The notes under the pieces: model-generated | What the model saw: the letters and a program-made list of their open reading frames with translations, nothing else | Databases searched by the model: none | Told to the model about the DNA's origin: nothing | Origin: Lophium mytilinum | Lineage: Eukaryota | Reading direction: 5' to 3' | Length of the DNA stretch: 64,000 nt | NCBI GenBank assembly: GCA_010093605.1 | Contig: MU004190.1 | Span: 1,633,599 to 1,697,598, forward strand | Translations under genes and position numbers: made by a program | Shown: one piece after another, positions 1,657 through 64,000 of the stretch | Layout: each line of letters opens with the position of its first letter | How positions within the stretch are numbered: the stretch's first letter is position 1

Positions 1657-4012
1657 ATGCCTTCCGACAAAGATCTCTGCATCAATTGCAAAGCAATAAA
1701 CGTCGAGACTTTATCCGCTCCGGGAGGGTTTTGGGTGCGACGAGCAGATCTCCACCGTCAATGCTGCCTCTGCGCTTTCATTGAGAATAAGGTATTTAGA
1801 TTTGATAGAGGAGTGAAAGAGATTGCCCTTCGTTTGAAGTCTCATTTTGATGGGGCGGTCATGTTAGAGATGGGCGGGACCGAGTTCAACATTGGCACGT
1901 TAGAAGGTAAGGTTTCTCACATTTTCAGACCATAGCCATCAATTTGTACACATTCTACACCACTACGTGTGGTACTTGGGGTATTTCTAGATTTTGCAGG
2001 TATCGCCGCTCTCGAATCGTACGTCTTAAGATTCTGCTGTCTAGAGATGGCCTGGCGCGCTGGTTTTTTGTTCATATTGAAGAAGTCCTGTCTCAACTTT
2101 ATCTTCAAAACCTCATCGAGGCACTCAACACCATGGCGGATGTACGTACCGCAGGTGCTGATAAACAAGGTCAGTCACAGTGGAGATGGATATCCACTGC
2201 CATTTAACTTATCAGCTACCTACTGGGCAGGCTCCTCCTCACAGTGGTATTGGGCGTGCAAACGCCTAAACTTTTTACATCCCGTTTGCAATGTTGAAGC
2301 CTATAGATATTTACAGACTCATGGCCTGTAGCGCGGTAGTGTACAATGTCTGTTAGTATGATGGTAGCTTACGAGAAGTAGATGATCCAGCTACCCGCTT
2401 CAAAGTACCTGTCTACAGAAGGCCCACAAATACCAGATCTCCTGAGACATTTGCGATGGCTAAACGCTGGATCCAACAATGCGCCTCGAACCATGATTGT
2501 GACAGGGTTTTCAAAACCAACGTAAACTCCGGAATCCGCCCAAGTCGTCTTATCGACGTTTTGGCATTTGGTCTATCCTGCCTGGACGCCCAGTTGATTG
2601 ACACCAGGAGCCTAAGCCGTTGCCCTCAATACATCACCTTAAGTTATTGCTGGGGACCTCCTTCGTCGCACAGCTATACCACTACTCGCGCGAACTTCGA
2701 AGAGCGGCGAAGGAGGATCAAATACGAGGACCTTCCTCAAACCTTCCGCGATGCTATCACTATCACAAGAGAGATGGGAGAACGGTACCTCTGGGCCGAT
2801 GCAATCTGCATCATTCAACAAGATGAGGACGACTGGGAGGTTGAATCTAAAACAATGGGCTCGATATATGCTAACGCGCTGGTATCAATAGCAGCAGAAG
2901 ACAGCAAAGATAGCCACGGCGGTTGCTTCAGAGATATTACTGGACCAGAAATCCCGGACCTTATAAGATTAGAAAGCGAGGTCAGCTACGGTAAAACTAG
3001 TTGTTTGCTGCTATTCTATGATCACCTAAGCTTTTACACTCGTAACTTAAGCAACATCCCGCTTCGAAAACGTGCATGGGCTATGCAAGAGAGCATCCTG
3101 CCTCGACGAATCCTGCACTACACCGCGTCGCAACTATATTGGGAGTGCCGGAAAGTAGTATTGGCAGAGGATGGTCTACCTCGGTATGACGTGCCGCCAA
3201 ACGCCTTCTTTCTTCGCCTAAGGGCATTCTCCAATGCCTTTACGCCTAGGGACGAGTCAAAACCCATCACCGTGCAATCTTCATTCGTTTTATGGTACAA
3301 ACTCGTTCTTGATGACTACTTTGAAAGATTCCTCACTTTCCCCGAAGACGTGTTACCAGCCATTGCCGGCATTGCTACCTTAATTCACCGGTCACTGCAA
3401 TGCCGCTACATCGCCGGCATCTGGGCTGAGAACATTGGGTACGGATTGAGCTGGAGCATGCCGGTCGGCTTCGCGTCCCTCCCTCAACCGTCAACGTACC
3501 TGGGGCCCTCTTTCTCTTGGGTAGCGCGGTGTGAGCGTAAAAGCTACCCTCGCTACTTCAAATCCCCTGTAAAACTTCAGGAATCTCACGTCAAGCTCAC
3601 CGGCCCCGATCCGTTCGGTCGAATCAACGGCGCGTGGATTAGAGTCAAAGGGCGAATGAAGATTGCTCCGCGATTGCCTGGTACGAAGAGAGGCTCTCTA
3701 CCAAGCGGAGACCGGACTCGCTCGAACAAGTCAATTGTTCGAACCTCCATCGATGGACAGCTTTTGGTGGCTTGTTTTGATGGTGAGCACCCCGCGTCGT
3801 CCATGGAAGAGTGGTGCTACTTCGACCTCGGAGATGAGAAACACCTTATACTTGTACCGAAACGCGACGAAAATCACAATGGCTGGGTACGAGTTGGACT
3901 TGTCGAGCCGTCGGGCGAGTACTTGATTGGTAAGTCAGACGGAGAGATACATACTATCGAAGGGTGGTCATGGGATGATGGGTGGGAAGAGAAGGACATC
4001 ATCATCTATTAA
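1657..4012 (+). CDS. HET-domain (heterokaryon incompatibility-like) protein
   Basis: ORF 2456-4012 has RLIDV, YITLSYCWG, LPQTFRDAI, YLWADAICIIQ, MGSIYANA and RAWAMQE motifs. Probable first exon 1657-1906 (LCINC...CCLC) spliced to ~2382 (DDPA...). Confidence 0.9.
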
Positions 4013-8898: not shown

Positions 8899-11800
8899 TA
8901 TCTTGATAGCAGTGTTGTAAAAGCAAGGCATACGAACCCCATCACCCTTGGTTGAGGTCCTATAGCATGCTGTTAGCCATCTAGATGCGACGGAACGTGC
9001 TTTGCTTAAGCTTACGGCACGTCATATGGCAGAAACGCAACGTGGAGAGGCTGGGTTCGCAAGTCGGCCATTGTAAAGAGGGGATGGTGAGAACAGCGAG
9101 GGCAACAACGACGAGCAATATACACATAACACCGCGGTCCATGCCGAGTGAGGCGCGAAAGATGAAGAAATCAGTTACCTTTAAGCCGCCGGTAGGGACG
9201 CCCACGCCGCATGCAAAGAAGCGCAAGCCCGCGGCGAACGAAGCCTCGAGACGCCGCTCCCGCTCCGAGACCCCACTCGAGGACATTGACGGTGGCTAGC
9301 AGGATTACGTACCCCGGTGATGACTTGCTGAGGCCTATCAGCCCGTACAACATAGTGTCTATAGCGGTAATGGTGATCCTTAAGCCAGATGGAATTACAG
9401 ATTTCTAAGTACAGTGTTGCAAATTGAGGTTTAGCAGACCTGTCAGATATGGCACCGTATGGGGTCCGCCAGGGTATGCTTGATACCTTGTAATTTCAGA
9501 GCGCAGTGGATTACAGATTAGAATCGAGGTTCCAAATCTTCGAATCGCGGTGCGGCTGGAGTAGTCCGTAGAAGTGTTGCCTTCTTCTTATTCCACTTCT
9601 TCTTATTCCTCTTCTTCTTATTCCTCTTCTTCTCAATCCTCTGTTCTTAATTCTCTTCTTCTTGTTTCAACCGTAATATGCTACTTCGCTCTCTTTCCAA
9701 GCAGTCTCCATTCTTCTATCCCTTCTTGTTCTCATTGTAACCCAGTCTTCCACTCGTCCCCTTATCTGTATTTAACCGATGCACATCTCGCATACGTGGA
9801 TCCCTGGGGCTCGTTCGAAGGCAGCTCGGAGGTAGATACTGTACCTGTGGCATAAGTTAGTCTCAAAACACTCATGTCTTTGAAAACAACCCCGAGGGCA
9901 TCTGTAATTCTGGGTTCTGAGCATCGCAGCATGTGGATGATGCATGGCAAATATCAAAACTTCTGAGAGCAGCTTAGCATCTCGATTGTTCGCCGGTGAC
10001 GCCAGCACCCTGTTAGTAGACTGGATGAACGTCCCGCACGTTCAGTGATTATTATCGTGCCCAAAGGCGTTCATTGTCTGTTCGAATCCTCGTCTGAGCC
10101 CGTGTGCTTGTCACAGTTTCACCAAGAGCTTTGAGGGGTCTTGCTGGCGTTGCGGGCCGGATTCCACCAGCAGTTTAGTTCGAAATGGGACGCCGAGTCG
10201 TCTGCCTTGACGAAACTTCAAGTTGCTACCCCTACCTGAGTCTGTCAGTTTCCTGACATGCCACATGCCCAGGCTTGCCAAAGCCAATCTAGAGTGACTC
10301 TAAGCCTCGGTGGGTTGGTATTTGTCCCAGGCCCTTTGCGTCTAGGTGTTTCCTGGCTCGAGCCCCACGGGTTCCATAAGGTTTCCCTATTCCAATGTTC
10401 TTCCTGTTGATGCCTGCCGACTTTCCGCTTCGCCTATGACTTTCCGCCTAGACTTAGGCCGCCTGGCGTTTTCCCACTGACAGGGCGTGTCCGATTGTCT
10501 CCAGGAGTATGTTATGACTTGATCTACTTCGTCGTTGTACCACAGTGACGCGTACCCTCCCCAGTAAGAACAACTGCTGGTCTGATTGAAGGACTAGAAC
10601 GTCTGTCTTGGTCGAGGGCCTTCCGAGGGCTCGTGGCGGAGTTTCAAGGTTCGAAGGTTGTTTGCCTCGCCGTCTGCGTTGGGTGCCTGTCTTAAGGAGA
10701 GAAAGGAGCTACTCCTACCAGGTTGTGCCGGGAAGACTGGTCTGATTCAAAAAAGATGAGTTCCTTGACTTAAAAGACAGTACAAGAGCACCTGTTACCA
10801 CCAGTACCAGTATGTTTCCGACGCTTTCGAGGACGCAATCGCTACGAAAACAAGTCCACACTTGTCTCTTCTTGCTGGCCCGGTCCCTGCTTGTTCTAAA
10901 GTTGTCCTTTCGGGATTCCAGACTGTTGCTTCTTCGAGAAGAACACAGGTATCCGTTTGTATGTGCATCAGGGCGAGGGGTGGCCGAAGGCAGGAGGAGG
11001 GAGGAGGAGGCTGGTATGGGAATGCTAAGGCAATCAGCCGGGGGACTCTATGAAGGCTCGAGAGAACCGAGGCCACAGAGAGTTAGCAGATCTCGAAAGA
11101 GCAGATCCCTTGGATAGTCTTGCCTTCATGATGCCTCCTTGTCGCCTCTGTTGACTGGGCGAAGATGGACAGGGACACAATGTTCCCTGCCCGAGGATGC
11201 AGCCTTACTTAAGGCACGTATTGGTGACCTGCCTATCTGTTTCGCCGCTTGTCTCTGTCTCTCATTGTTGCCACGGGAGCACGGAGGCTCAAGGCCGTAG
11301 CAATGTCTCAAGCAAAGTCACTGGTGGCCTAGGTAGCCCGAGAATGAAGAAAGGGGGTGTTTGCATTATGCTACACTATCTAAAGGCTATATAGTGAACA
11401 CAATGAGGGTGATCTCTCAATGCGTTGATGCTGTGACGCTAACTCGGTTGTGCGTGGCTTGCCCTTTTGTTGTGGTCTTCTGTCGCCTTTGCTTCTCCCT
11501 CATCTTCTCTCCATCCTACCCACCACCATCATCACCAACACCACCAGTACTTGCCTATTCACTGCCTCAAGAGCTTCTAGACCTGTTCCAGATCCTCTGC
11601 AGACCGTCAGCGTAAGTCTTCAGGTGCTCTCTGAAGCATCCTGAGCCCGTGGTGTCACTAGCCGGCGAAAAGTCTTCTCCGCCCCTTCTTCACCTCCCTC
11701 ATCCCCAACACCATCTGAAAACTGCTGCACGCCGTCTCAAAGCTTCTACGAGTCCCACTGACCTTCCACAGATGCGTCTTGCAAGTCTTTCGACGCCGTT

Positions 11801-12345
11801 TGGCCTCGTGTCGGGGTTTGTGGGCGAGGTGGCCTCCATCGCCACCTCCGCTTCGCACTTGACCAGCCCATCACACCCAGCATCGAAACACCACAGCAAG
11901 CAGTGGCTGTAGCATCTTTCGATACCTCCGAGCCTCCACTAACGTGTGCTGTAAGTCTCTCGGCGTGTTAGGGACCTTTCCTGGCTCTGACGTTTGTGGC
12001 TTCGACCGTGGCTTCTCCGCCCCAGACTCATCCACTTCATCACTAACAACCTCCAGCCACCTCCAGGCACACCTCGCTCAGCACTGTTGATCTCCCGGAG
12101 GCCTCGTTGGCAGGCTGTGCCTCCGCTGTAAGTTTGGAGTTTCTTTGACGGCTCTTTGCCTTGGCGACATCTCACTCTTTTTTCATCAACACCATCCATC
12201 AACACCATCAACACAACAAAGGTCGCTTCGTCCTCAGTGCTTCGAGGCTTCAGCGGTGCTCCGAAGCACAAGTTCTCTCTACCCAGTAAGTGTACAGCTC
12301 TTTCATATTTTTTCAACCTCTTCCCATGCCCACCACAACAACACT

Positions 12346-14236
12346 TGGGCTGCGTTCTCGAGGGAGTCGTGCTTCACCCACGTCGACTCCTTAAAAACCA
12401 GCGTAGAGTAACAAACATCGCCCGGAGCTTGTTCAGCGGTCGCTTCTTGCTGGACTGAAGCAATGAGAGCTGGGTAAGAACCGTTCGCCAACAGTCCGGT
12501 GTCGAGCGACGCAGGATGGACCACAGCCGCCCGAGGGAGGACCTGGCGGGCAGGATTCGGCTTGGTAACCCGGGTCCGAGTAAGGTTGTAAACGTCGTGA
12601 TTGCCAGTCGCGGCGTAGGTGTCCTTGCTCGTACATCTCTTGACCCTTCCAGCATTTGTTGTTACCGTTTTGCACATGTCTTTTTGTCCAAGCCTTCGCT
12701 AACTTCATCATCGTAAGGTCCGCTTCCCTCGGCGTCGAAGTTAGGACTGCTTCATGCTATTGCGTCTTAAGAATTGGTACGTTCAAGTCTTTCTTTCAAC
12801 TCTTGTCAGCCACTCTACCCTCCCAGCCCCTCCCATCGTACAGGCAAGGTACGGACACTCGAGCCTGGCTCTTTCATAGCCATGAAGCTCTCATGCCTCT
12901 TGCCGAGATCGAACAAACAAGTCGCCGCCATGGTTCCCTGTCCGATCATAGTTCGCCGCAACGCGGTTATTTAGTGTAGTATTGTGCCCCTCGGGGTTAT
13001 GAGCCGGGGCAGCGGCTGTTCTCTTCAACGGCGGCGACGACTGCGGGATAGTTACCCTGGCATCAGCGCTGCTCCGCATTCGATGGCGCCAGTAGGTGGT
13101 CCTAGTCAAACATCTTTTGCTAATCTTTCTGCAGGCAGATTCCTCCCTTCGACTTCTCGCGGCACCTCCACAACCTGCTTCCTCCTCTCTTACAACCTCT
13201 TTCGAATGCCGAACGCGGTACGATCATTAGCACTACCTTCTTCTTTAGCCTCAAACGGTTTTTGGCATACGAGCGCGGCTCCTTGAGAACATTCCAAGTG
13301 TCTCCTACAAATACCAAGCACCTGTCGTCACTGGACGAGGAAATGAAAGCAACATGGCATAACATAATGGATGTGGAGTATTTGCGAGATTGAAAGTGTC
13401 TTCGACTTGTAGGTCGGCATCAAATCGAGTTCTGGGGTACTCGGAGCTACTGTCAAGATGGATTCGTCGTCCCCTCTCATTTCGCCATCTTTGGGTTTCA
13501 GCATCAGGCAAGAACAGTCGAACGATCTTGGCTTCCTCTTAGCGTGGTTCGAAGATTGCTTTCCAAGAACAAAAAGAAGTCGCCCTCTGGTTCCCGTTCG
13601 CTCGTAGGTCGCTGTCCCTACCTCTGTTGGTGGAGTGTTTGTCTGCAATATTGCGCTGGCGAGGCAGCCCGCGCCTGAAGACAGCTGTAAGAGGGCGACA
13701 GACGCCAAGATAGTCACCCCAGCATCAGCACTGCCTTGCATTTGATGGTGTTGGAAGGCGGTCTTGGCTCGGACATATTTCTTTCGGTTTGGCGATCTCT
13801 TCATCAAATGCACGATTGGTTTCGTGGTTGCTGACAGAAATGCAGACACTAGAGATCTGCTTCCTAGGTAACTGTCATCGGTTCTGTCACAAACCTCATC
13901 ATGGTAAGTTCTTTCCGCTTATTTTTTCCTCTCGTTTTTCCTCGACGATCGCCCTCTTCAATCAGGCACTTCAGCCCACCGAGCCCGACTCTAGTAGCTC
14001 TCGCTCCGGGTATTGTAGGTCAAGATCAAACCAAATCGTCGTGCTCAGCGGGGTGTTGGAAGCAAGTAACCATGGGGCGCAGTCGCGGTCTTGGTCGGTT
14101 ACGCGTACTGGGGCAGAGCAGGGCCTTCCTAGATGGTCACAAGAGCACGTACGAGCGACGGATGAAGGGAGTACCACGGCTTCAGCTGCCTGCTCTGCTA
14201 GAATGGGGTCTGATGGGCGGCCCAACTCGTACATCT
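12346..14236 (+). ncRNA. Array units 1-4 (most diverged; apparently one per intron)
   Basis: Ends gctcgtACAtct (12633), gtcaaACAtct (13110), gctcggACAtat (13773), actcgtACAtct (14231); each followed by a branch point and AG. Confidence 0.55.
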
Positions 14237-15358
14237 TTCTCTTTCTGCGATCTCCTTGGCTCTTTTCGATGGGTTCCAGTCGTCCTTGACTTTTGCTAAC
14301 GATTCTTGCAAAAGCACTCCTTCGGGCTATCGGCCTGGATTGCGACTTCCTCAGCACAATTTCCACCTCCTCTCCCAGTTGTGTAGTCTTGTAAGCCTCT
14401 TTCTCATTTCTCTCTTCCACTCCCTCCCATTTTTCTATTGACGTGAATTCGACTTGCTAACTTTGCCAAAGATAATTGCCATTCGAACCTTGCTCTGTGG
14501 CTGAGATCCTGCATATTGTCAGCGCAACTACTGCAGGTACGTTTTTCAGTCTTCTTCTCCTTCCCATTTCCCACTGTGATGGTCGTCTTTAAACACCGTG
14601 GTTCTGCCGAGGCTTGATGATATATACACATCTTTCTGAGACCCGAATCTCTCCGCTATCTCGATTGCAAGCTTTCGAGTGATCAACTAGCTAACTTCTC
14701 ATCAGCAGTGACGACCAGGTAAATATAGGGATGCCCTCAATCCACTACAAGTACGTTCTCCGATCTCTTTTGCTCTTTCCCAACATCCGGAAATGATGAT
14801 TTTGTATATTGAAATTTCTCATGCTGAGGCCTGATGACACACACTACTTTCTGAGACCGGACTTGTCGCTCATTTTCATTTGCTGCTCTTTGAATGAAGA
14901 TCCCGCTAACTCTTGAAAAAACCAGGAATCATCATTCCTTGTGAGGTGGCTGTGGGCCAATTCTTCTTTACCTCTGCACTGTTTCACCCATCGTGACGGT
15001 GGGCAGAGTCTCGGAGGGACTCAAGTCTACCGCAGGTACGTTTATTGACCGTTTTGCTTTCTTCATTCTCCCATTCTCCCATCCTCCAACTATGATGATT
15101 CTTCGAGGCTGTTGCTGAAACATGATGATTCTCGATTCTCTGAACCTGCGATTCTGCGACCTACTTTTCCAGACAATCTTTGCGCGGTCTTGGGCTAATG
15201 CGTGAGAAGTTAGGGATCTTGACATTCGACATCTTTGAAATGTGTGCGCTTTCGCTCTTTTGTCGACTGCATTTAAATGGTACATGGCATATCCTCTCCG
15301 ATGGCACCTTCTCCACCCATTCCACTCCATCCGATATCTCCGGTGCTCTCCAGAAAAC

Positions 15359-16162
15359 GGCATCGCACCGTCGATCGTGGTCGGCTTCTCCATAGCCTTC
15401 TACAGGCCAGGGTGCCGGAGATCAACGAAAGGCTGCGTAGGTAGTAGAAGAGGACCGGTCGCGAGATTCGTTTCTCAGCAGAGCCCGTCGGACCTGCGCG
15501 CGGTCGTGACGCTGGAGCAATACCTTCATTCAGGGTTTAAAACTAAGGATGATCATGCACCCTCCCATGGATGAATCGAGAAGATTTACCCTGCCGGTGG
15601 CTCCAAGCTCATACATCTCCCTTTTTTTTGTCAAGATTTCTCTCATTTCGCCCACTTCGATTGGCGTCTCTTCGAACATTGACAGACAATGACACTAACC
15701 ACACAATAGTACGTCTTTACCGACAGTGCTCTCCGGGAATCTTCGAAAAGCTGAATGTGAACATCGAGGATGAGGATTATGGTATCAATATCGACCTCTT
15801 GGCCCTCTGAATCCGCTTTGCTTCTCTTCTTCTCCCTTTCCGATAAATCATTCCTTCCTCCTCTGACCACTAGGCCGCATTTGCAGGCACGCCCGTATCA
15901 CACCGAAGCAGCTTCCTCATAGCCTTCTTCACGTGGGGCGTGCCGAGATCAAATTTGTCGCATGCAGTGGCGACGGGTCGACTACTCGAATGATTGGGAC
16001 AGCAGGCCATGACGAGGTTCGTAAGGAGCCCTGAGCCCTGCATGTTGACGTGACGCTGGGGCTTACTACGTCTCCCCTGCTGCTGTGGAGATCTGGAATG
16101 GCAAAAGAGAAGATGTTGCAAACCGCCACCAGTATTAGTTGGTCGCCTCAGCTCATACATAT
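15359..16162 (+). ncRNA. Array units 5-6
   Basis: Basal stems ggcatc/ggtgcc and ggcacgccc/gggcgtgcc, each followed by AGATCA (canonical ANANNA). Both end gctcatACA. Confidence 0.65.
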
Positions 16163-16323
16163 TTTCAAGGTTGGTTACTCTTCTTAGTGCTTTGATCCAA
16201 GCTTATCTTCCCTTCTTCTTTCTTTTCTTCTTCTTTTTGTTTCCTAGAGTATACGCCCAAGAATCAATCTTTTCCCGTTTCTTTCTCTTCTTGGGCAGTT
16301 GAATTCCCTCATTGAGATGCTCA

Positions 16324-17298
16324 GACACCGCCTTTACTCCGAACCCAGCTTCCTCCTCATAGCTCCGTTCCAGTAAACGGTGCCAAGATGGAGCTAGTCG
16401 CTCACAGTGGCACGCGGTCGACGATGGCATCGGAGCGGGAAGTAGGCCTAGGGTGTTTTGTCTGTCGGCCCCGAGACTTAGAGCTTCGTAAGAGCCTTCC
16501 ATGCCCTGTGAGTCGACGTGACGCCAGATGCTACCGCACCTTCCCTACTCTTCGTGGAGGCCTACCTGTTTCAGTTCACTTCACGGTAAGACGGGCTTCT
16601 GGCTCATACATCCTTTCGCGTGTTTTCCTCTTTCTTCTCATGTCTCTTCTAGAGGTGATGTGCTCAGACACCGCCGCACTCCCGAACCCAGCTTCCTCAT
16701 AGCTCCGTTCAAGTGGGCGGTGCCAAGATGGAGCTAGTCATTCGCAGCGGCGCAGGGTCGATGATGGTCTCGGAGCGGGAGGTAGGCCTAGGGGTTTGCC
16801 TAGCGACCCTAAGACTCAGAGCTTCGTAAGAGCCCCAGTGGCCCTGTGAGTTGACGTGACGCCAGATGATACCACACCTTCCCTACTCGCTGTGGAGGCG
16901 TGAGCGAGTAAACGTCACAATTAAGCAACTGGTATTCTGGCTCATACATCTTTCCGCCTCTCTCTCTCTTTCTCTCTCTCTTTTTCTTCTCATGTGACTT
17001 CCAGTGGTCATGTGCTCGGCACCGCCTCACTCCCGAACCCAGCTTTTCATAGCTCCGTTCAGATGCGCGGCGCCAAAATTGATCTAGTCGCTTGCAGTGG
17101 CACGGGATCGACGATGGCATCAGAGCGGGAAGTAGGCCTAGGGAGTTCTGAAAGTCGCCCGAGACTTAGAGCTTCGTATGGAATTCCAGTTGCCCTGTGA
17201 GTTGACGTGACGCCAGAAGCTACCACACCTTCCCTGCTCTTTGTGGAGGCGTGAGCAATGTTTACCCACCGGCAAGTGGTATTCTGGCTCATACATAC
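16324..17298 (+). ncRNA. Array subfamily A (3 close paralogues, ~345-bp period)
   Basis: Near-identical ccgaacccagct..tcatagctccgttc and gacgtgacgccaga...ttctggctcatACA blocks. Confidence 0.7.
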
Positions 17299-17765
17299 TA
17301 CAACACCGATTCGATCTTGGAGAGAACCCGTTTTCGGATCTGCCGTTGGTGAGTTTGTGGGGTTTTCTTGGACGAGCGGGCCTGACTTCGTATCTAGGTC
17401 GTATCAACATCACACGAATGTCTGATGTTGGGTGATAGCTGCGTGTTTCTCGTTCATGTTCTCTTTCTTACGCCGTTCTTGCTCGGCAAGACATCTCGTT
17501 CACAGCTTGACGTATTCGGCAGTCAGGCGTGGTCGACGCTACTTCCTCATAGCCGCGGCGTGGGCAATCCTCAGACTCTTGGTACCACCGTGCAGAATCC
17601 CTGGCCTTGTGGGTAACCTAGATGCTCACATTCCGTCGCCCCGAGAACGACTGGAAAGGCCAGCAGCTGGACTCGGAGAACAACGCTGGACTGATGAGTA
17701 AGTTTTCCAAACTCTTCCTTTCCATCCCCTTCATTCTTTTCACGCCCTAAATCGTCTCAAACCCC

Positions 17766-18236
17766 GGCACCGCCATCTCTATACGCCGACTACCCAATAG
17801 TCGTGCGCCGGCTGGCGGTGCCAAGAGGAAAACCATCGGCCTGCGTTGTACTTGACCATTGCCGCAGTGGCTGCGTTCTCTTGACGCGCAAGACCATGAC
17901 GCTGGCCTAACCCAACTCCCCTGCACCGCAAGGCCCAGCTCAAACATCTTTCTTCCTGTGGGCTTTCCATTGCTTCATCCTGAAAGTTTGACGGAGAGAC
18001 TGACTCAAAAGCAAATCCAGATTCTTGAATGTTTCTATTTTTCTGGAATCCTGGCACCGCCGTCTCTATGCGCCGACTTCCTCATAGTCGTGTGCCGGCT
18101 GGTGGTGCCAAGAGCGAAACCATCGGCCTGCGTTGTACTTGACAATTGCCGCAGTGGCTGCGATCTCTTGACGCGCAGGACCGTGACGCTGGCCTAACCC
18201 AACTCCCCTGCACCGCAAGGCCCAGCTCAAACATAT
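17766..18236 (+). ncRNA. Array subfamily D (2 short ~184-nt paralogues)
   Basis: Highly similar pair 287 bp apart; both end aggcccagctcaaACA. Confidence 0.7.
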
Positions 18237-18443
18237 CGACTCTCTAGGAATTTTCACTGCTTAAGTATAAGAGCAGGCAGAGAGACAAACTTAATACTAG
18301 GTCCTGATGAAAAGGCGATTGAAGGTCCTCTCAAAGTCTCACACAGCTAAGCAAGTTTTCTCTTCTTCAGCTCCACAGCTCCACAGCCCACTCAACTTCT
18401 CGACATCCGGTTCTGCGCGTCAAGACGAACTCTTCCAACATCC

Positions 18444-20774
18444 GGCCCCATTCTCTTCATCCGAGCCGGCTTCTTCATAGTCGTGCTTTCGATAGCGGGG
18501 CGAAGAGTGAACTGTATCGTGGTTGATGTCCGACGTGTTTCTGGCTGGCGTCTGAGACATCTTCCCGTGCAGGTCTACCGACGCTGAGCACTACCTCGAC
18601 TCCGACTAGATGGAGAATGGAGCTGACGCACTTGTGGCAGCGGTCAAATGGACGCTCAGCTCAGACATCTTTACTACCCACCCTTGTTTACATCTTCGAA
18701 ACGACGGAATAGCGAAGCTGACAGTTGTTGTAGGTTTTAGGACGCAAAACCAAGTGTTCAGGTCTTGGAGCAGATCTTCGAGAGCTAGCTCTGAGGGGAG
18801 CGCAGCATGGAGTCCCATTTGATGTAAGCTTTCCTGCATCTTGTCTTTCTCCTTCGTCAAGAACCACCCCATGTCGGCACCGCTCCCTCCCTCCGAGTCG
18901 ACTTCCTCGTAGTCGCATGCTCTCGGGAAGCGGTGCCAAAACTGATTTCCGACCTGCGTTGTGGAGCGGGCCACCGCCATGCGGTTCTCAAGAGCCTTTT
19001 ATCCCTCGTGGTGTCTATGACGCTGGTGCAATACCCGACTCCGGATGTAATCAATGGAGAATCGGACTTGAGTTAAAGTGTATTATGGACGCCCAGCTCA
19101 CACATCTCTCTTTTCTAGGCATAGCTGCTTCTTCAGGGCTCAGGGATAGAAGTCGGGAGGCTGACAAGGTGAGTAGGCTCTGGTAATTCGTTGCAGCCCG
19201 AAAGCAGTGTAAGTCTTCCTCCGTCTCTTCCAATTCCTCGGCGTGGCTATCTTTCCATTTCCTCTTCAAAATCCAATCTTCACGTCCCTCGGCACCGCTT
19301 CCTCACAGCCGTTTTACTCATAGCCGTGTTCGCTCGGAGCGGAGCCAAGATTGAGAAGCTTCTCGCGTTGTGGCGGAGGGTCGCCTCGCAGAAGAAACTT
19401 GCGTGGAGCCGGAACCCTCTTGGCCCTCGCAGCGAACTTGACGCTGGTGCATGAACCCGACTCCAGAGATGATCCATGAAGTATCGGAATCTTATCTTAC
19501 GGCCTCCAACGATGGACGCCCAGCTCAGACATCTTCCATCAATCCTCGCCCTTTGCGAAAAGAGTGATGAGCTCAAGCTGACGAGGAGAAGAGGTTCCGA
19601 GGTTCCGATGAGCGTGTGATGAGAGATAGGATACTCCGCTGGTCGGCAACGATGCTCTTGCAAAGACACAGGTGAGCCGAATTTCTTGCGCATCTTCAAA
19701 CGCATCTTCTACCCAACCGCACCTTTTTTTTCCAACGCTTCCGGCACTGCCAATATTCCGAGCCAGCTTCCACATAGCTATGCTCTCAATGGCAGCGCCA
19801 AGATTGATATTGTCATCGTGTGTGGCGGAGAGCTCCACTAGCTAGCTACTAGTTGGAGGCTCTCTTACCCCTCACGATGATGTGACGCTGAGGCAAGTTC
19901 CACGACTCCGATAGCACGACCAATGGTCGAGAACTGCACTAGCTATCATATCAATGGAGGATCGTGATATTGATGCGCATGGCCCCCTGGACGCCCAGAC
20001 TCATACATATTCTACCGGTGCAACTTTCAGACTGAAGCTGACGACTCGAGCAGAAACCTCACGCGCAAAGTAACTATTCCCATCTCTTTTCTTACTCTCA
20101 ACCACTCTCCTTCGACCTTAGGCACTGTCAACATTCTGAGCCAGCTTCCTCATAGCTATGCTCTCAATGGCAGTGCCAAGATCAATGTTATCATCGTGTG
20201 TGGCGGAGAGCTCCACTAGCTACTAGCTGGAGGCTCTCTTACCCCTCACGATGATGTGACGCTGAGGCAAGTTCCGCGACTCCGATAGCATCGACCTTGG
20301 TCGAAGAGTGGCTAGCTATCATCAAATGGAGGATCGGGAAAGAAGATTTGCATACCATGGACGCCCAGACTCATACATATTCCGCCAGTGCAACCTTTTA
20401 CGTTGAAGCTGACGAATGAAGCAGAACTCCATTGCGCACCGTAGCAATGCTCCCAAAGTATGTATCCCCTTCTCTTTTCGTTCTCTTCCAGCCTCTTTTC
20501 TGAGCCTTTCGGCACTGTCAACATCCGAGCCAGCTTCCTCGTAGCTATGCTCTCAATGACGGTGCCAAGATCAAAAGATATTACACGCGTGTGGCGGAGG
20601 AGCTCCACTAGGTGGAAACCGTCTTAGCCCTCGCGGTGATGTGACGCTGAGGCAAGTACCCCGACTCCGATAGCAGAGACCCTGTCCGAAATGAAACAAC
20701 AAATAGCTATCAAATGGAGGATCGGGCGACCCAAGGAGGTCAGGATTTTCATGGACGCCCAGACTCATACATAT
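18444..20774 (+). ncRNA. Array subfamilies E/C (6 paralogues)
   Basis: Ends ggacgcycag(a)ctca(t/g/c)ACA. The last three share ggcactgYcaa...gagccagcttcc..tagctatgctctcaatg..gYgccaagat. Confidence 0.7.
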
Positions 20775-21447
20775 CCCATCAATGCAACTGCTTTTGCAGA
20801 TCATAAAGACAACGTTGGAGCTGACGAATCGAGCAGAAATCCAGATGCTGAAGACAGTGGCAGTTCGGGGAGCGTTTCGCCTTCTTCGCTTCTCCTGAAA
20901 GGTTTTTGTTCTCTCCGGAATACCCGTTCGGCGCGCTCCACACCGCCGATGCGGCGTTCTTGTCACGGCTCAGATGCCATGAAAAGGATACGAGTGGACT
21001 CTTCAGCCTACATTGAGGCGTCCATTGAGCTAATGAGTATGTTTCAACTCGACGAATAGGTTGCGAATGGGTGCTGACTTTTCGTACTCTGTATTTAGAG
21101 AGACGGTATCTGGAGCCAAGAAGGAAGGTAGGTGCAGGTGCGCGATGAGAAGTTGCTTGCCGGTTTGGACGCTTGCTGATCTGAAAGCGTAGGAAGCAAT
21201 CAGTAGCACTGTCAACAAACATTTTCATGCCCCCAGTCACTGCGATCCAGCTCGGCATTCCAGGCTCTTTCAAGACTCTTTTTCTGTCTCAAATACCTTT
21301 TGTCCTGGAGCTTAGTCGATTTTCGTCGATGGCTCGTCTTTCCACTCGAATTTCACCACCGCGGTACCCTAGCACCATCGTGGCACCGTTCAATGACCTC
21401 AATCTACTCATGGCAATATCTACCATGATCAAGCTACTGGTTCCAAC

Positions 21448-23892
21448 GGCACGCGCAGCCGAGAATGTCGGCTCCGGCAATGGCAGCTTCGACTTGTGCA
21501 CGCCAAGATTGATAACATCGTTCTCGCTAGTGGGTCGCCTCTCTCGGGAGGTGGGCGTCTCTCGAGAGGAAGGTTGGATTAAACATAAAATCGATGTCAC
21601 GCGCCCCCGTTCGAGGGCCACCTCATGCACGGGGGTGTAAAACGCAGCCGTAATCGGAAAAAAGCGAGACCGAGCGGGATTTGAAGTTACCACGTCTTCA
21701 GCACTGCATCGGCTTGATGGAGACGGTGAAGGTATTCTGACCCGTACATATTCTTTCGGTCGCAAGCTGCATAGCCAGCCTAGTCTGGAGCTTCGAGACC
21801 AGATCACGAAGGGGCTGTATGAAGTAGATGAAGAAAGAGCTGGAGGATCAAAAGTTCTGGTGAGTGTTGGTTTCAGCCTCCCCGTCATGGATTCCCTCCA
21901 AATCGGACCACGGCACGCGCTAGTCGAGTATGTCTGCTCCGGCCATGGCATTCTGGACTTTTTTCCGGCGCACGCCAAGATGGATGATTCGTTCTCGCTG
22001 ATGGGTAGTTCGTTAATGGGCTGTTGGATTTGAGTTCAGTAAAAGTTTTACCCAATTGCCCAGTGCAGTGGTACCTCCGTAATCGGATGTCGTCAGAACT
22101 CAACGAGCAAGACTCGGGTGACAAGCGAGGACGAGCGGGATTTGAAGTTACCACGTCTTTAGCACTGCATCTGCTTGATGGAGATGGTGAAGGTGTTCTG
22201 ACCCGTACATGCCCTGTCGATCACAGGCTGCCTGGCCTAGCGCTAGAGCTTCGAGGCCAGAGACCGGATTGCTAACGAGGCGTCAAGCTAGATGAGAAAG
22301 AGCTGGAAGATCAGAGGTGCCGGCATTACCTTGGCCTTCGAGTCGAACCTCACGACACGCGCCGGTCGGGTACGTCTGCTTCGGCCGTGGCGTCCTCGAC
22401 CGTTTCCGCGCACGCCAAGATCGAGAATTCGCCCTCGTCGGTGGGCAGTTGGATTTGAGTTATGCAGGCAGCGAAGCGACCGAGACCCGAAGGTCCAGTG
22501 CAGTGGTATTTCCGTAATCGGAAGTTGTCAAAACTCAACGAGCATGCCTCGTCTCAGACAACAAGCGAGGGCGAGCTGGATTTGAAGTTACCACGGACTC
22601 AGCGCTGCACAGCCATCAATGGAGCCGGTGAACGTATTCTGACCCGTATATATCACCCTATTCTCTCGGCCACGGAGTCTTGGGCCTAGCGCCGATGCTT
22701 CGAGGCTGAACTACTAATTTCCACAGATGCGCCGGCAGAAGGAGTCGCGGGAGGAGAATGGCGATCGACACGAAACCAGGCACGCGCTAGTCGAGTGTGT
22801 CTGCTACGGCAGTGGCATCCTCAATTCGCAAGCCAAGATTGATAGGTCGCCCTCGCTGGTGGGATATTGGATTTGAGTGGGAGTGGATTAATTGCGATGG
22901 AGTCACCCAGTGCAGTGGGTAGATCAACCGTAATCGGAAGTTGTCAATTACCCCACGAGCATGGCGAGACTCGGACAACAAGCGAGGGCGAACGGGATTT
23001 GAAGTTACCACGGATCCAGCGCTGCACAGCCTTCAATGGAGCCGGTGAAGGTGTTCTGACCCGTACATACTTCTTTTCGACCTCGAAGTCACCAGCTAGG
23101 CAACGGCGCCTCGGGGTTGAGCTACTAACCCCTTACAGATACGGTCAACCAGAGGCATAACCGCGGCACGCGATATTTGACTTGTCTGCTTCGGCGGTGG
23201 CATACTCAACATACGCACGCCAAGATTGATAGTTCGTTCTCGCTGGTGGGCTGTTCGTTCTCGCTGGTGGGCTGTTGGACGCGGCAAGACTCAACACGGG
23301 GAAGCACCCCAGTGCAGTGGGAGACGAACCGTAACCGGAAGTCGGTTTCGGTAACGACAACGCGAGGACGAGCGGGATTTGAAGTTACCACGTACTCAGC
23401 ACTGCAACGCATGATGGGGACGGTGGAGGTGTTCTGACCCGTACATCTCTCGCTACGGAAATGCCGGGCCTGGTGTTGGCCCTTCGATGCTAGCTTGCTA
23501 ATCATTCGCGCCTACGCGACGGTGGATTTCAGACCTGCGATTCTCCGCTCAGGCTGGTATTAGTCTCACGGCACGCACCGATTGAGTATGCGGCTCCGGC
23601 GATGGCATCCTCGATTTGCACAAGGCGCACGCCAAGATCGATCATTTTTCTCTGCTAGTGGGCTCCGGGGGGTGAGTTCCAGCGGGTTAGCATAAGGGAG
23701 TCGGCAGTTCCACACAGACCACTGGACACCCAGTGCAGGGGGATAAGATCCGTAATCGGAAGTCGTGCGGAACTCGGTGGGTTGATGGCTTTTTTGACGA
23801 CGAAGGCGGAGACGAGCGGGATTTGAAGTTACCACGGATTCAGCGCTGCACCGCGTAATGGAGCCGGTGAAGGTTTCCTGACCCGAACATGT
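21448..23892 (+). ncRNA. Array subfamily B (6 paralogues, ~390-460-bp period)
   Basis: Shared gcgggatttgaagttaccacg...cagcRctgca...ggtgaaggtRttctgacccgtACA (ATA in one copy). Confidence 0.7.
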
Positions 23893-24768
23893 TCTATCGC
23901 GTTGAATGCGATGGTGTTGATGCTGAGGGACGTTGGAGGTTAGGATAAGGTTGGAGTTGAGTATGTTAGCGTTTACCGTTCCGAATTCCTTTTGCTGGTT
24001 AGATCAATGCTTACGTACTGACGTCCCAGCTTCAAGGGGCGTCTTAGATCCTTGACTACCTCCCCACGACCTATGCTAGAGTAGATTTGATTCTGGGTAT
24101 TTATCGAATAGATCTGTCAACCTTGTCAGCTTCCCCGTCCAAATGTTATGCGCAACTTTCGGTCCGCTTTCGCTCTGCCCGATATTATGACGCCCACCAA
24201 TCATAGATCTAAAGAACGTTGTATGTCCTTTGAAAGGTGGCGGGCTTCATCGGGGGTCCCTCCAATGGCGTGGTATTGCGCGCTTGATGCTGGGCTATGG
24301 CCCATTGTCATCCAATCCCGCGGAGGTTTGCGGTCCAAAGGTGTGTCAATTATCCTGCTCCTCGCTGATCCACAGATTCCCGTTCCGTATTTTCCCCTCT
24401 CCCTCCCTCGATGGCATGCTTCACGCAGTCATCCAGTCAGTCAATAGTCTAGGTAATTCGGTCTGATTTGAAGCGGTTATCCAAAGAAACTCCCTCTTCG
24501 GCCCTCCCCTCGTTCGATCAGCATGCTCCAAACCACACCAAACTCTTTACAGCTTTTCCCGACCCTCATAGAGCTGGAGATTATATCAGCTTTGCAACAC
24601 AAAGGGCACTTCGCTGAAGCATACTGTTCCATATCCGATATCCTCCAATGATCAACCGCACGCGCGCAGAGTCAGACACACCAAGGTAGCTCGCAGCCCT
24701 GGACTTCCGCGCAAGAACGTCGCTAGGCTCGGCTGATATAGAAACTACCACGATGTAGTAGGATTCGC

Positions 24769-25005: not shown

Positions 25006-25612
25006 GGTGGAAGCTTTGAAGATTGTGGAAGAGGGAGTAAGCTGACCTCAGGAGAAGGGTTGAAGTATGGGCAATATGAGTGTTCTTTTACAATCAGTCT
25101 CACAGCTGGCTGCTGACCTTGAAGCCCTCATTTTCGAGGGAAGGGTCTCGCTAGGAAAGGCTTAGCGCCAATTTCCACCGCACGATACAAAAAGCTTCTC
25201 GTCGCCTCCCCTCCTTCTCTCCTACAAGGCGATCCGCCCGTCAATTGCGCACGGCGCCTGCGTCTGAAGAGAGTCATCCATAGCCTCCTCTCACCATTCA
25301 CGACATTGATTTTTGTACATTATGGCTTTGCCCGTTTGGTGTCGGAACATATTGAACTTCTTGAGCTGTGGACCGGGAGTGGCCTTTCTACTGCCCATCT
25401 TCCTGGTTCACTACGGCTCATACATACTATTCGGACAGCAATATACTGGCGAGAACTACCGCGTTTGGGCTATGACGCCATGCGCTGAGTGGTGCAGAAT
25501 TGTTGTGAACCCTCAAGTAGCTTGTAAGATGTTATTACCTCTCAGGTGTATATGAGGGCAGAGCGGATGAGGAGGAGATAAAGAAGAAATGCACACCTCC
25601 CGTGTCTCCATA

Positions 25613-25850
25613 CAGTACTAGGCCATAAGTCTGGGCATAAGAACTGATTTCTGCTTGGCTCTGAGTTGCTCACTTGACACCACTGTTGGGGATAGCCTGG
25701 TTGCTAAGTAGTTAGTTAGTAAAGAGATAGTCTAATCTGTAATGCTTGAAACTTAATCTTGCTGTTAGATCTAGGGAGTCTTGTGGGGTACCCCAAGCAG
25801 TGGTGAATCAGGGTGCCTAGACTTGTAGCCTATCACTGTAATAGAGGGCC
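25613..25850. repeat. Dispersed repeat R, copy 3 (AT-shifted, RIP-like changes)
   Basis: Aligns by eye to 8156-8378 with many C>T/G>A differences. Confidence 0.8.
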
Positions 25851-26945
25851 CTGCGGAGGAGTAGGCGGGGAGGAGGGGGCTGCTGTGGGGTGGGTTCTGG
25901 ATGCTGCTCCCGTGCTATTTGCCGTAGTGGAGGATAAGCTGGGCCGCCTCATGCCCATGCAAGCTGTTTCTCTGCTGATACAAAGTTCTGTGTGCTATTA
26001 TTTGAAGTGGCTGGCTCTACGCTGTCCTGTGATGATGATTTTGGAAGTATCAGTCAGCGAAGTCGATATTGGATAGACGGAGCCTCCTGTCCTGATGCCC
26101 ATATGCGACCGTTTGAGATGCTCTAATACGTCGTCAATATTTCACTGGAATTGAGTATTTCGCGGTTTGGTCTTGATCTCGCTGATGGCGAGTAATCTAA
26201 CACCCCTGCGTTTCCCTAAGATCGTCAGATGAGTCCTAGCTGTTGATCTCTTCTTCTATATATTGCAAAATCCATGCCGCCGTCGGAGGGGCCCCAGCTG
26301 TGCGCAGCAATGACGAAAGAAACAACCGTCTTCATGATTGGGCGCACGCTATCACATCACCATACTTCTAGCTCTTACTAGAGCACGGGTGCAAAGGCTC
26401 TCGATCTCAGTAATACTGCACGGCGCGCAACGGTTGAAGTTAGTTGCACTAATGCAGATTTCTTGGGCTTGCAATCTCTTTGGATGGCCTGACTCGCGCA
26501 TACTTCGACCTTTAGTTGGAGCATGTCGAAAGGGGTATTCAGGATTGTGATAGCTTTCAATACACATATTTCTTTCCATATTTAAGAGCATTTCGCATGC
26601 GTTTGAAGAAGTAATGCATATATTGCGATAGCATAATTTGAGATGTAAGTGCGCCCGCGGCGTAGATCAGGCACACCAAAGCGGTGATGTTTATGTGCGT
26701 CTGAAGGCTTTCTGAACCGGAAGCGTTTCTAGAACGCTCAAGTCGAAGCGTATTTGCAGACAATCGATCTGCTTTCGGACTACTAGGCCTTCGCTAGACA
26801 TAGCTAGTTATGAGGTAGAGAGATGCAATGATGGTACACGCGGAGCAATGATAGGCGGTTTCCAAATTCTGGCATAAATGGACGAGTTTGAGGTAACTAC
26901 CTTCCTCTGATATGTGCGTGTGAGAGAATGCTGGTGGAATTGCGT

Positions 26946-34779: not shown

Positions 34780-35604
34780 GGTCGATACGATTTACGGTTA
34801 ATTTAACGTATCCTGGATTTATCCTGGGGAGTTGCACATGGAGACGTGCTCGAAATGACAAGGCATCGCGATGTTAAAGACCCAGAAGTACGGCGGCCGG
34901 CATTCCAAAGCTTCCAGAACCTCCGGGAGTGGGGTTTCTCGGACACGGCATCAGCTGATTGCGAAGAGGAAGATGGCTCGGGAATGCTTTTCGAAGGCGG
35001 AAAGAGGGGAATAGGGTGATAATGATGCCGCAGGAAGATTTCGGTATTTCGAGAGATGCCGGCTTGGCGGAACAGTCATATTGGGGTTAGTCATGAGAGT
35101 TGAGCTGCATTTCTTCAGATCTGGGTTGTGTATACACGGAGCCCCTTCTGTTGCTTGTGCATTACACTGCCATGGTGCGCAATTTTGGGCCTGTTGATGC
35201 TAAACGGTCGAGAATTTAATTTGTAACGTCGAAAGCCGGATTATGTTGCGTAAACTCCCTAATGCTAGAGCTCATCGTTCCACCGCACAACAACCCAAAC
35301 ACTACGCCTCCTCTTGCAGGTGCAGCAATACTAGTATTCGTTCCAAGACATTGCTTCTCTAGTCACGTACCACGAAGTTGCGAGTTGTGAACCTTTATTT
35401 CCCTACTCATGTACCACAAGGTAACTGTTGACAAATAAACTATATACCTGTACTCTAAGCCCGAATAACAAAAGAACACGATCAGAAGGAGCGACTTTGA
35501 GAAAGACATACCCAAAAGAAGCCGACCCCGATCTGCAAAAACACCATCAGATTATTACCACCTTCCCCATTCCGCCTTCTCTTCCGCTTCAGAACATCTC
35601 AGTC

Positions 35605-40673: not shown

Positions 40674-41507
40674 GGTTTCCACTCGCTGAGGTGTTGTAAT
40701 TATAGTATCTTCAGGAGGCTGAAGGTCCAAGGGAGGGCTGGTGGCCCGGTTGGGTAGGTAAAGAAAATTTGCAAATGACGATGGAAAGGCCATGCACTTT
40801 CCTATCGTAGGCCGACAAAGAAGTAAAAGCGGTTGAAGGGGAATAGAAGAGAACAGCTCGCTAGAAGTAAAGAAGGACGCAAGCAAACGGAGCGGTACGG
40901 ATCTCACTTACTGCCGCACGGAAAGTATAGAGGGGCAAATCACGGGGTGTATACTGCCAGATGTTACTCTCGAAACAAGTAACTCGGCCATCATGTGGTC
41001 TCGGTGCCGGTTGTTAGCAGGCACGCAGTATACGTCAGGCGCTGAGCCATATTGATGTTTATTTCAGCCTTCGGAATATCTCCGCATGGAGGTTGCGGAA
41101 GCCTAGCGATCCGCCCTGGTATCCCGCAGGTAGACTTTCAGCACGAGTCATTTGTGTTTTGACGCTCTCCATACTTGACGATAGTAGACAGACACAAGTG
41201 GTGGCCAATCAAGTTGAGGTTGAAAAAAGCGGGACAGAGATCGGAGCGAAAATTAGTTCGGGCCCGCAACGCCAGCCGAGCCTGATCCCTGACGGCGCAT
41301 AAATACCATCTTCGGCTAGACTCCTGGAATGGAGCCCCTACAATCGCCCGCTTACTGAGGTCTAAGTGGAGACTGATATGAACTCAAACCCTTTAAAGTG
41401 GAGATTGCGCGCTTAATGCAGAGTAGACTCGGTACCTTTCCACGAAAACAGCATCTTCACGCAGCTGCTTATAATTGAAACTCGTGGAGGCTATTAAAGA
41501 ACCGCTT

Positions 41508-49246: not shown

Positions 49247-49899
49247 CAGGGCTACCCTTTAATCACTGAATTGCCCCGTTAATTAATAGTGATTAAAGGC
49301 TTAGCAGGTATTAATAATTAATTAAGTCTTTAAAAAAGTTTTAATTACTTAATATAAAGAGGCCTAATTAATTACTAATTAATATCTATTAAAGTTAGAT
49401 TTAGTATTTAGATTTAGTATTATAGTCTAGCTTAAAAGTCTATAATTCTAGGCCTTTTATTAGTCTATCTATATTATAAGCTAACTAACTAGCCTATAAC
49501 TATATACTTACTATACTTTATATACTTACTATAATCTATATACTTACTATAATCTATATACTCTCTATTTTCTATAGCCTTTCTATTTTACTTAGCTATA
49601 TAATTAGTAAAATATAGAGTTTTTATAATAGCTTTTAATATAATAGTACTACTACTACTATTCTTATTACTATTACTATTACCTCTATATTTATTACTAC
49701 TATTTTTATTATTATTATATCTTCTACTATATATAGTTATTATACTTAATATTTTTAGTACTATAATATATACCGCGCTAATTCTCTAGCTTTTTCTCTA
49801 GCTACTACTACTACTAATAAATATAATATTCTACTCTATTCTAACTACCCTTCTATAGAGGTACTAAGAAAATATAATATAATTAAGCTTATAGTATCT

Positions 49900-63800: not shown

Positions 63801-64000
63801 ACTTAAATATATAAGATAATATATAAAAGTAAAAAGAAATCTAAGATAGTAGCTAGATAGTTTCTATAGAAAATAGACCTGCTACTCTACCTCTTAATAG
63901 TAAGAGAGATAGAAAAAGAATAGATTTAGCTCTTCTACTTAATACTATAGCTCTACTATTACCTATAGCCTTACTATAACTAATAGCCTTATTATTACTA

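Follow-up and report, generated by a model that had tools for sequence, protein, structure and literature searches.

Positions 12349-23892 of the DNA studied here hold 23 head-to-tail units of 184-322 nt each, all on the + strand. This DNA, referred to as the window, is a stretch of 64,000 nucleotides from Lophium mytilinum (assembly GCA_010093605.1, contig MU004190.1, positions 1,633,599 to 1,697,598 of the forward strand), and all coordinates below are window positions. The locus is probably a real, locally amplified, intron-hosted array of H/ACA-like small nucleolar RNAs (snoRNAs), accompanied by three box C/D-like elements. It is a repeat with a conserved, covarying secondary structure, recurring motifs and splice-like signals, and it carries no coding signal. 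Transcription, processing, protein partners and a guide function are what we infer from the sequence alone. The reading that we favour, with moderate confidence, is that of one non-coding host gene whose introns carry 23 paralogous H/ACA-like and three C/D-like RNAs, the module having been duplicated in tandem and having then diverged.

The 3' end of each unit was defined as the ACA plus three nucleotides (ATA in U20). A first-pass annotation had proposed about 23 units of 180-320 nt arranged head to tail, and this description holds in number, size and orientation. It had also treated the units as one series sharing order and motifs; the common architecture is borne out, the uniformity is not. 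BLAST resolves the array into sub-families, namely U02 and U03; U06-U09, which are linked through their 5' hairpin to U12 and U15-U17; U10 and U11; U13 and U14; and a family B composed of U18-U23. Nor is the series unbroken, as the annotation had implied, since the stretch 14585-15144 consists of three box C/D-like elements and not of H/ACA-like units. Self-BLAST of 11-25 kb against the whole window confines the repeats to the array, in direct orientation only. Neither this search nor a covariance model run over both strands of the 64 kb returned copies elsewhere in the window or on the - strand. Tandem Repeats Finder (TRF) picks up the U07-U09 triplet alone (period 351, 2.7 copies, 78% matches). 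A candidate 24th unit at 25417 was rejected, being a 3'-end pattern match inside an apparent small open reading frame (ORF), without hairpins.

Structurally, folding gives every unit (23/23) the same layout: the 5' hairpin measures 56-66 nt, a single-stranded hinge follows, and the 3' domain runs up to the ACA or ATA. This domain is composed of a variable middle part, either a long hairpin or a multi-branch domain, and of the last hairpin, whose lower stem adjoins the ACA. The hairpin-hinge-hairpin-ACA plan initially suggested for the locus is seen in all units, with an A-N-A hinge and an ACA/ATA end. The motifs named with it, a GGCAC..GTGCC hairpin, an AGA hinge, a GACG 3' stem and a terminal ACA, are real without being universal. 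GGCAC stands at the 5' end of 15 of the 23 units and GTGCC before the hinge of nine, both being exact in six and the rest covarying. The hinge begins with AGA in 21 units and with AAA in two, GACGC is found in the 3' domain of 16, and the terminal ACA closes 22. All 23 hinges follow the pattern A-N-A-N-N-N-A. Matches to the hinge word GCCRARANNNR number 36 in the window; shuffled sequence gives 15.65 +/- 3.9, and none of 100 shuffles reaches 36. Twenty of these matches are on the + strand within the array, and 19 of the 20 coincide with the hinge assigned to a unit. For the 3'-end word YTCNNACATNY, the count is 26 in the window and 6.6 +/- 2.5 in shuffles, and 16 of the 26 matches are unit ends. 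In 13 core units, the ACA adjoins the terminal stem directly or after 1 nt.

The 5' hairpin of the core family (U05-U17) is built on a 9-bp lower stem, in which GGCACCGCC pairs with GGCGGTGCC, or on covarying versions of these strands. Above it opens an internal loop, with 7-10 nt in its 5' strand and 5-6 nt in its 3' strand; the loop sequence varies between sub-families. Two 4-bp stems follow, topped by a 7-nt apical loop within the conserved word CTTCCTCATAGC. The apical loop has the consensus TTCCTCATAG, with a TAG that is invariant in 13/13 aligned units. In these 13 units, the internal loop lies 15-16 nt upstream of the hinge (the 9-bp lower stem plus 1 nt). This spacing matches the H/ACA pocket rule of 14-16 nt upstream of the box, as given in the accessible part of PMC2780460. 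Two-sided loops at 15-16 nt with differing sequences would be the look expected of diversified pseudouridylation guides.

For ten of the 13 core 5' hairpins, none of 200 dinucleotide shuffles gives as good a fold (z-scores of -4.1 to -6.3). The weakest core fold belongs to U14 (z -1.72), whose apical stem is shifted. This unit carries the loop word twice within 19291-19330, once where the internal loop lies (CTTCCTCACAGCC) and once at the apex (TTTTACTCATAGCC). Outside the core family, the 5' hairpin of U01, a divergent H/ACA-like unit (12349-12638, + strand; hinge AGAGTA at 12405, 5' splice site GTAAGT at 12286), reaches z -3.19, and 0/200 shuffles fold as well.

A covariance model of the 5' hairpin and hinge (R1), trained on nine units, returned 13 matches at E <= 0.005. 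All of them lie on the + strand in the array, and four (U06, U12, U13 and U02) are outside the training set. Nothing comparable was matched elsewhere on either strand of the 64 kb. The R1 scores are 47.6-70.5 bits for U06 (15886-16162), U07 (16324-16613), U08 (16667-16951) and U09 (17018-17298). They reach 70.8 and 76.6 bits for U10 (17766-17949) and U11 (18053-18236), a short 184-nt pair aligned by BLAST at 81% over 268 nt. U12 (18444-18670), U13 (18876-19107) and U14 (19291-19534) score 41.5, 46.1 and 60.2 bits, and U15 (19743-20010), U16 (20121-20380) and U17 (20511-20774), with one candidate intron each, score 74.9-82.3 bits. The 5' hairpin of U02 is a weak member (17.6 bits, E 0.0035), and U05 (15358-15618), a core member whose 5' hairpin is divergent, reaches 12 bits (E 0.46); all of these units are on the + strand.

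In the R1 alignment, 87.3% of the cells are paired and 11 of the 17 pairs have changed on both sides. None of 500 shuffles reaches any of five measures, and sliding the partner strand by 1-3 columns leaves 26-44% paired. RNAalifold recovers the same 5' hairpin from a plain MAFFT alignment, with nine of 15 pairs compensated. The model also gives a partial match at 17541-17553, within a remnant 5' hairpin between U09 and U10 ('U9b', 17518-17590, + strand) that keeps the CTTCCTCATAGC loop motif at 17538 and has no hinge or ACA. The 467-nt spacer in which this remnant lies (17300-17760) further contains the splice-like words GTGAGT at 17349 and GTAAGT at 17698.

At the other end of the units, the GACG element is part of a longer strand, GTGA-C-GCYRG, which pairs with CYRGC-TCAY just before the ACA. 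This terminal stem was examined in a MAFFT alignment that includes U05 (A8), with the structure written by hand from the sequences. In it, 89.7% of the cells are paired, against 8-53% when slid, and 4/9 pairs have changed on both sides. As many as 39 of 500 shuffles are as high on the both-sides count, and none on cells changed or on the covariation score. The compensatory changes in the 5' hairpin and the terminal stem support the earlier suggestion of selection on structure, as far as copies from a single locus can. A GTGAGT in the middle hairpin of U07-U09 was considered as an intron boundary and rejected, since it is complementary to the facing strand of the stem and no other unit has it.

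The units of family B are about 300 nt long and comprise U18 (21447-21751), U19 (21912-22212), U20 (22352-22653, with ATA for ACA), U21 (22778-23070), U22 (23165-23448) and U23 (23571-23892), all on the + strand. A long-range stem of TCGTTCTCGCT with AGCGAGGACGA encloses small hairpins. The consensus fold has 68 pairs, 12 of them compensated, including the long-range stem at columns 91-101/279-289 (alignment A2). In the 3' hairpin, the internal loop is invariant in 6/6 copies and the upper stem varies by compensation; the loop spacing is 11 or 17 nt, by choice of the closing stem. The family-B 3' hairpin has homologues in three further units, likewise on the + strand. These are U02 (12843-13115), its paralogue U03 (13507-13778; alignment A7, which also relates U02 to family B; BLAST identity of 71% between 13033-13117 and 13694-13780) and the divergent U04 (13965-14236), whose 3' hairpin can be aligned with family B. 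Within U22, a perfect and recent 21-nt tandem duplication at 23232-23276 (2.1 copies) affects the 5' strand of the long-range stem. An invariant family-B word, AAGTTACCAC (21680-21700 and paralogues), matches a conserved stretch of fungal large-subunit (LSU) ribosomal RNA (rRNA) in the sense orientation and not as a complement, an identity that, for a 10-mer, is at chance level.

The units are under purifying selection relative to the spacers, as column identity in three sub-families is 75, 73 and 53% within units against 32, 41 and 26% within spacers. The spacers had been described as unalignable and often pyrimidine-rich, which stands in part: identity does drop to 26-41%, and pyrimidine-rich spacers lie before U07 and U09, with CTT and CT microsatellites at 16212-16238 and 16958-16991. 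None of the 36 stop-to-stop ORFs (99-248 aa) in the array matches Pfam. Mismatches between paralogues in nine adjacent pairs are flat over the three phases, and indels are mostly not multiples of 3, in agreement with the initial impression that no credible ORF is present. Transitions and transversions between paralogues number 363 and 337, which rules out repeat-induced point mutation (RIP) as the source of the divergence.

Reads outside the assembly add little to this picture. In run X1 (9% of words; RNA or DNA only by guess), six contigs of 181-264 nt are identical to the array at a depth of about 2.7. They cross predicted splice sites unspliced, no joint fits an intron, and they are uninformative on expression. 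In the same run, a 698-nt contig at depth 141 and another at 193.5 contain a look-alike of the family-B 3' hairpin (window 23356-23406 and 21716-21749). It differs at four positions over 50 nt, has another loop and continues downstream into unrelated sequence. The organism may have, elsewhere, a further relative of family B that is abundant or present in multiple copies. When metagenomes were scanned for relatives using the 18-mer that is invariant in family B, the 14 loci returned were all chance matches, similar in nothing but the word.

An origin of the locus from a transposon or a satellite, or its being a repetitive protein gene with many short exons, is largely refuted and hardly tenable: it is tandem and locally amplified, and the X1 look-alike at depth 141-193 against about 2.7 would mean further genomic copies if X1 is DNA, but copies are lacking elsewhere in the window and on the - strand, the 36 ORFs without a Pfam family, the mismatch phases and the indel lengths speak against a protein gene, TRF sees one sub-array only (period 351), and compensatory stem changes are unexpected of a satellite.

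The surroundings of the units, from about 11.4 to 24.0 kb (about 12.6 kb, + strand), point to one long non-coding snoRNA host gene. A TATA-like element, CTATATAG (11388-11395, + strand), lies upstream of the presumed host start and may act as its promoter element. Three candidate 5' introns without a snoRNA-like insert follow on the + strand (about 11612-11771, 11951-12056 and 12128-12221), with short exons between them. They begin with GTAAGT at 11612, 11951 and 12128; ACTGAC at 11757 and ACTAAC at 12042 are each followed by CAG, and the 3' end of the third intron was placed by eye. Among the units, the signals GTAAGT/GTACGT, GCTAAC/GCTGAC and YAG delineate modules of a mini-exon plus an intron. 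Many units are preceded by a 5' splice site and followed, after 25-60 nt, by GCTGAC or GCTAAC with YAG, and then by a mini-exon of 16-90 nt. In 14 of 26 upstream spacers, branch point, AG, mini-exon and 5' splice site all follow one another. U15-U17 are followed by GCTGAC and then CAG, with a mini-exon of 16-80 nt up to the next 5' splice site. By eye, the mini-exon downstream of U18 is homologous to that downstream of U19, so that the duplicated module would be exon plus intron. A last candidate intron without a snoRNA lies at 23961-24029 (+ strand; GTATGT...ACTGAC...CAG), and the presumed 3' end of the host follows shortly after.

Three further candidate introns carry the box C/D-like elements, in each of which C, D', C' and D boxes are present. 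CD1 (14585-14640, + strand) reads GTGATGG...TGATGA...CTGA within an intron marked by GTACGT at 14537, GCTAAC at 14690 and AG at 14705; it has no Rfam match, and its assignment is by boxes alone. CD2 (14790-14856, + strand) lies in its own intron (GTACGT at 14751, GCTAAC at 14905) and matches the Rfam family SNORD52 below threshold (24.1 bits, the gathering score being 45; E 0.18). CD3 (15090-15144, + strand), again in its own intron (GTACGT at 15036, GCTAAT at 15194), gives weak Rfam C/D matches of 14-15 bits. The first-pass annotation mentioned neither the splice-like signals nor the three C/D-like elements. With this context, the locus becomes an apparent extension of known snoRNA host-gene clusters and not a free-standing array, the units sitting, by their splice-like signals, in introns of a candidate multi-exon non-coding host.

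We postulate that the repeat module, a mini-exon plus an intron with one RNA, underwent many tandem duplications followed by divergence. The host would be transcribed by RNA polymerase II, and Cbf5, Nop10, Nhp2 and Gar1 would assemble co-transcriptionally on the scaffold of hairpin, A-N-A hinge, hairpin and ACA. Introns would be freed by splicing and debranching, and exonucleases would then trim them to the protein-protected RNA, ending 3 nt after the ACA. U07-U09, which have no splice signals between them, would be released from a shared precursor by endonucleolytic or exonucleolytic cleavage. On balance, the units are likelier than not to be true H/ACA RNAs, a class assignment made by architecture only.

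Several observations weigh against a spliced host gene with H/ACA RNAs in its introns. The complete splice chain is missing in 11 of the 26 upstream spacers. U06, U11, U12 and U20-U23 have a branch-point-like word and no consensus 5' splice site under the search pattern used, U19 has GTGAGT and no branch word, and U07-U09 have neither signal. The strict H box, ANANNA, is present in only 8/23 hinges. The 5' hairpin of family B has no two-sided pocket and folds with z of +0.13 to -2.65, and the core 3' hairpin has, by eye, a long variable 3' strand and an upper stem lying far more than 16 nt from the ACA. The initial proposal of a locally amplified, orphan H/ACA-like family keeps the architecture, the covariation and the core spacing on its side, and has the strict H box, the family-B pocket and the core 3' spacing against it. 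Part of the covariation count derives from the R1 alignment, which the model itself shaped, and since all paralogues are related and come from one locus of one genome, the changes counted do not represent independent events. The Rfam comparison named beforehand was run, and no family of Rfam 15 matched at the gathering score in the whole window. At E <= 10, the stretch 11.5-24.5 kb gave weak C/D matches, two chance rpfG matches and no H/ACA family.

The search for guide targets adds to these points. As stand-in rRNA, we used fungal rDNA contaminating bacterial assemblies, that is, sequence from other fungi, covering about 95% of the length. L013 supplied small-subunit (SSU) model positions 567-1831, 5.8S and LSU 1-2329, G005:C21 the remainder of the LSU from about position 2400, and L018 the first ~530 nt of SSU; the gaps amount to ~70 nt within the LSU and a few nt at either end of the SSU. 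Reversed or block-shuffled rRNA served as controls. All pockets at true boxes gave 213 rRNA matches against 170-197 in six controls, with the same score distribution, and the 13 structure-defined pockets gave four against 4-21 in ten controls. The guides of the C/D-like elements had no perfect rRNA match of at least 10 nt (the best being 9), and their duplexes were no better than with reversed rRNA. No target shared by paralogues was found in this rRNA in convincing geometry, the best shared one having 3 + 8 bp with two wobbles.

A loose scan taking every AGA/AAA as a box was uninformative (2625 matches against 2457 in the control), and the conserved loops were no more complementary to rRNA than to reversed rRNA. 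Within the window itself, the pockets found wobble-rich matches and the reverse complement of the family's own loop motif only. A match to the Neurospora crassa ACA19 site (26S-Psi1666 context) was rejected as chance, as the AGA at 15464 is not the U05 hinge, the upper stem has 4 bp, and one side pairs over 3 bp. The test has low power, with guides of 9-11 bp falling within the background and no positive control; the Neurospora guides drawn in supplement 5 of PMC2780460, as far as accessible, pair over only 9-13 bp. The lack of rRNA complementarity above controls fits the earlier description of the units as orphan, a term that remains provisional because the test is weak.

Pairing that is kept through changes on both sides is also hard to reconcile with an array consisting mostly of relics. 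In such an account, which we think quite unlikely, a few functional H/ACA genes were amplified by unequal crossing-over, most copies are decaying, and orphan status reflects the decay of the guides; decay, however, would break pairs and not compensate them. The absence of an rRNA target above controls would fit it, and so would several blemishes: the ATA of U20, the remnant hairpin at 17518-17590 without hinge and ACA, the shifted apical stem and weak fold of U14 (z -1.72), the 11 of 26 spacers with incomplete splice signals, and the internal 21-nt duplication of U22. Against this stand the column identities of 53-75% in units while spacers show 26-41%, and the loop, hinge and internal-loop sequences, which are kept across copies otherwise only ~70% identical.

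It is likewise improbable that the units belong to another class of structured intronic RNA, such as splicing or stability hairpins or small-RNA precursors, which mimics H/ACA RNAs and does not assemble with Cbf5. The combination repeated 23 times is H/ACA-specific, comprising a hinge after a 9-bp stem, a terminal stem before the ACA and a spacing of 15-16 nt, although the strict H box in 8/23 units only, the missing 5' pocket of family B and the lack of an Rfam H/ACA match would suit a different class. So would the conserved core apical loop with its TAG in 13/13 units, as we know of no eukaryotic H/ACA definition of which such a loop is part. The strands of the internal loop, or pocket, can moreover pair with each other in some units (TTTACT/AGTAAA in U07, CACT/AGTG in U08), but over the 13 units this self-complementarity is marginal (summed run of 36 against 31.6 +/- 2.4; 25/500 shuffles at least as high). 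The ACAT[C/A]T ends resemble those of Neurospora H/ACA snoRNAs, and the C/D-like elements in neighbouring introns fit a snoRNA host gene.

Returning to the favoured host gene with H/ACA-like RNAs in its introns, we tentatively put forward an extension of it, as a possibility more doubtful than probable. The units may be lineage-specific, tandem orphan H/ACA ribonucleoproteins, one per intron of a dedicated 12.6-kb gene, whose diversified 5' pockets and conserved apical loop would act on non-rRNA substrates (mRNAs, small nuclear RNAs or the host transcript) or without guiding. The locus would then be a fungal, H/ACA-class counterpart of the SNORD115/116 type. SNORD115/SNORD116 and SNORD113/114 are mammalian, imprinted box C/D arrays with one orphan snoRNA per intron of a repeated exon-intron module. 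They offer the closest organisational analogy, whereas the present RNAs are H/ACA-like and fungal, and the analogy is one without homology. In rice and Drosophila, several snoRNAs, including H/ACA isoforms in Drosophila, are placed one per intron of a single host, and these isoform sets are small and guide known rRNA sites. In contrast, the present array has 23 copies with divergent loops, and no rRNA target was found for them.

The arrangement is unusual for fungi. The accessible part of a Neurospora crassa survey, which also cites the intronic snoRNA gene clusters of rice and Drosophila, catalogues 20 H/ACA snoRNAs, of which 16 are intergenic singles, two are intronic, two lie in 3' untranslated regions, and none is described there as clustered (PMC2780460). 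Predicted rRNA targets are given for 14 of the 20, and six are orphan; its clusters I-VI consist of C/D snoRNAs only, in UHG-like non-coding hosts. These hosts share short ORFs with the present locus and, as far as its candidate introns go, the multi-intron structure, the splice signals and one snoRNA per intron. Unlike them, the locus is made up mostly of H/ACA-like local duplicates, and it is much larger, with 26 elements over about 12.6 kb. The N. crassa H/ACA genes are mostly single, 14 having predicted rRNA targets, whereas here 23 paralogues lie in one array and no rRNA target was found.

At the level of the RNA, the same source, within its accessible part, shows closer likenesses (PMC2780460). 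N. crassa ACA1-20 share the hairpin, hinge, hairpin and ACA, and both sets are unusually large for such RNAs, with sizes of 136-309 nt against 184-322 nt here. Their 3' ends often read ACAU-N-U (supplement 2), compared with ACAT[C/A]T in the present units, and one H box is drawn with 7 nt, AGAUAGA (supplement 5), similar to the 7-nt A-N-A-N-N-N-A. The 3' hairpin loop of the orphan ACA11 resembles the invariant family-B loop, by eye only and unaligned.

Gao et al. (2021), as far as the text is accessible, report new structured fungal RNAs, mostly single copy per genome, that include covariation-defined H/ACA candidates of Pezizomycotina, one of them consistently intronic; unlike the present locus, no tandem arrays are described there (PMC8216456). 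Paralogues and C/D clusters figure in 'The fungal snoRNAome', whose accessible part does not contain the word 'tandem' (PMC5824354). For the joint promoter motif of ribosomal-protein genes, the accessible part of PMC4138321 reports none for Aspergillus fumigatus or N. crassa. A literature search, with bioRxiv supplements outside its scope, found no paper on a fungal tandem H/ACA array.

Twenty-three H/ACA-like paralogues at one locus would alone exceed the 20 catalogued in N. crassa. The locus would show the birth of snoRNAs by exon-intron tandem duplication, in copies that have diverged to different degrees. Given expression and binding by Cbf5, their diverged pockets form a natural series for the evolution of guide specificity and for the roles of orphan H/ACA RNAs; without expression, the locus clearly illustrates how structured RNAs decay. 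In this fungus, deletion of the array as a whole would also be feasible.

Among the assemblies from which stand-in rRNA was taken, 13 contigs filed as bacterial (among L001-L020, assemblies or metagenome-assembled genomes) contain an exact site of the fungal internal transcribed spacer primer ITS1-F, a site that was not found in viral contigs. Five annotated contigs of the 13 carry fungal SSU/5.8S/LSU rDNA, one with a group I intron in the LSU. These bacterial assemblies look eukaryote-contaminated.

In the flanks of the array, Pfam identifies a HET-domain protein at 2357-4012 and an ankyrin-repeat protein at 48013-48930. Pieces of a PDR-type ABC transporter (ABC2_membrane, PDR_CDR, ABC_trans_N), split by introns, lie at 35400-41000 on the - strand. 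Such neighbours would be in keeping with a fungus of the Pezizomycotina. The GC content falls from about 50% to 22-31% over 49000-64000, a sharp, AT-rich and RIP-like block; the array itself has no transition bias. At 25443-26000, shortly past the 3' end of the array, no structure or family was seen, and X1 reaches a summed contig depth of 232 with several joints and loose ends, as would suit an element that is repeated or strongly represented and whose copies vary.

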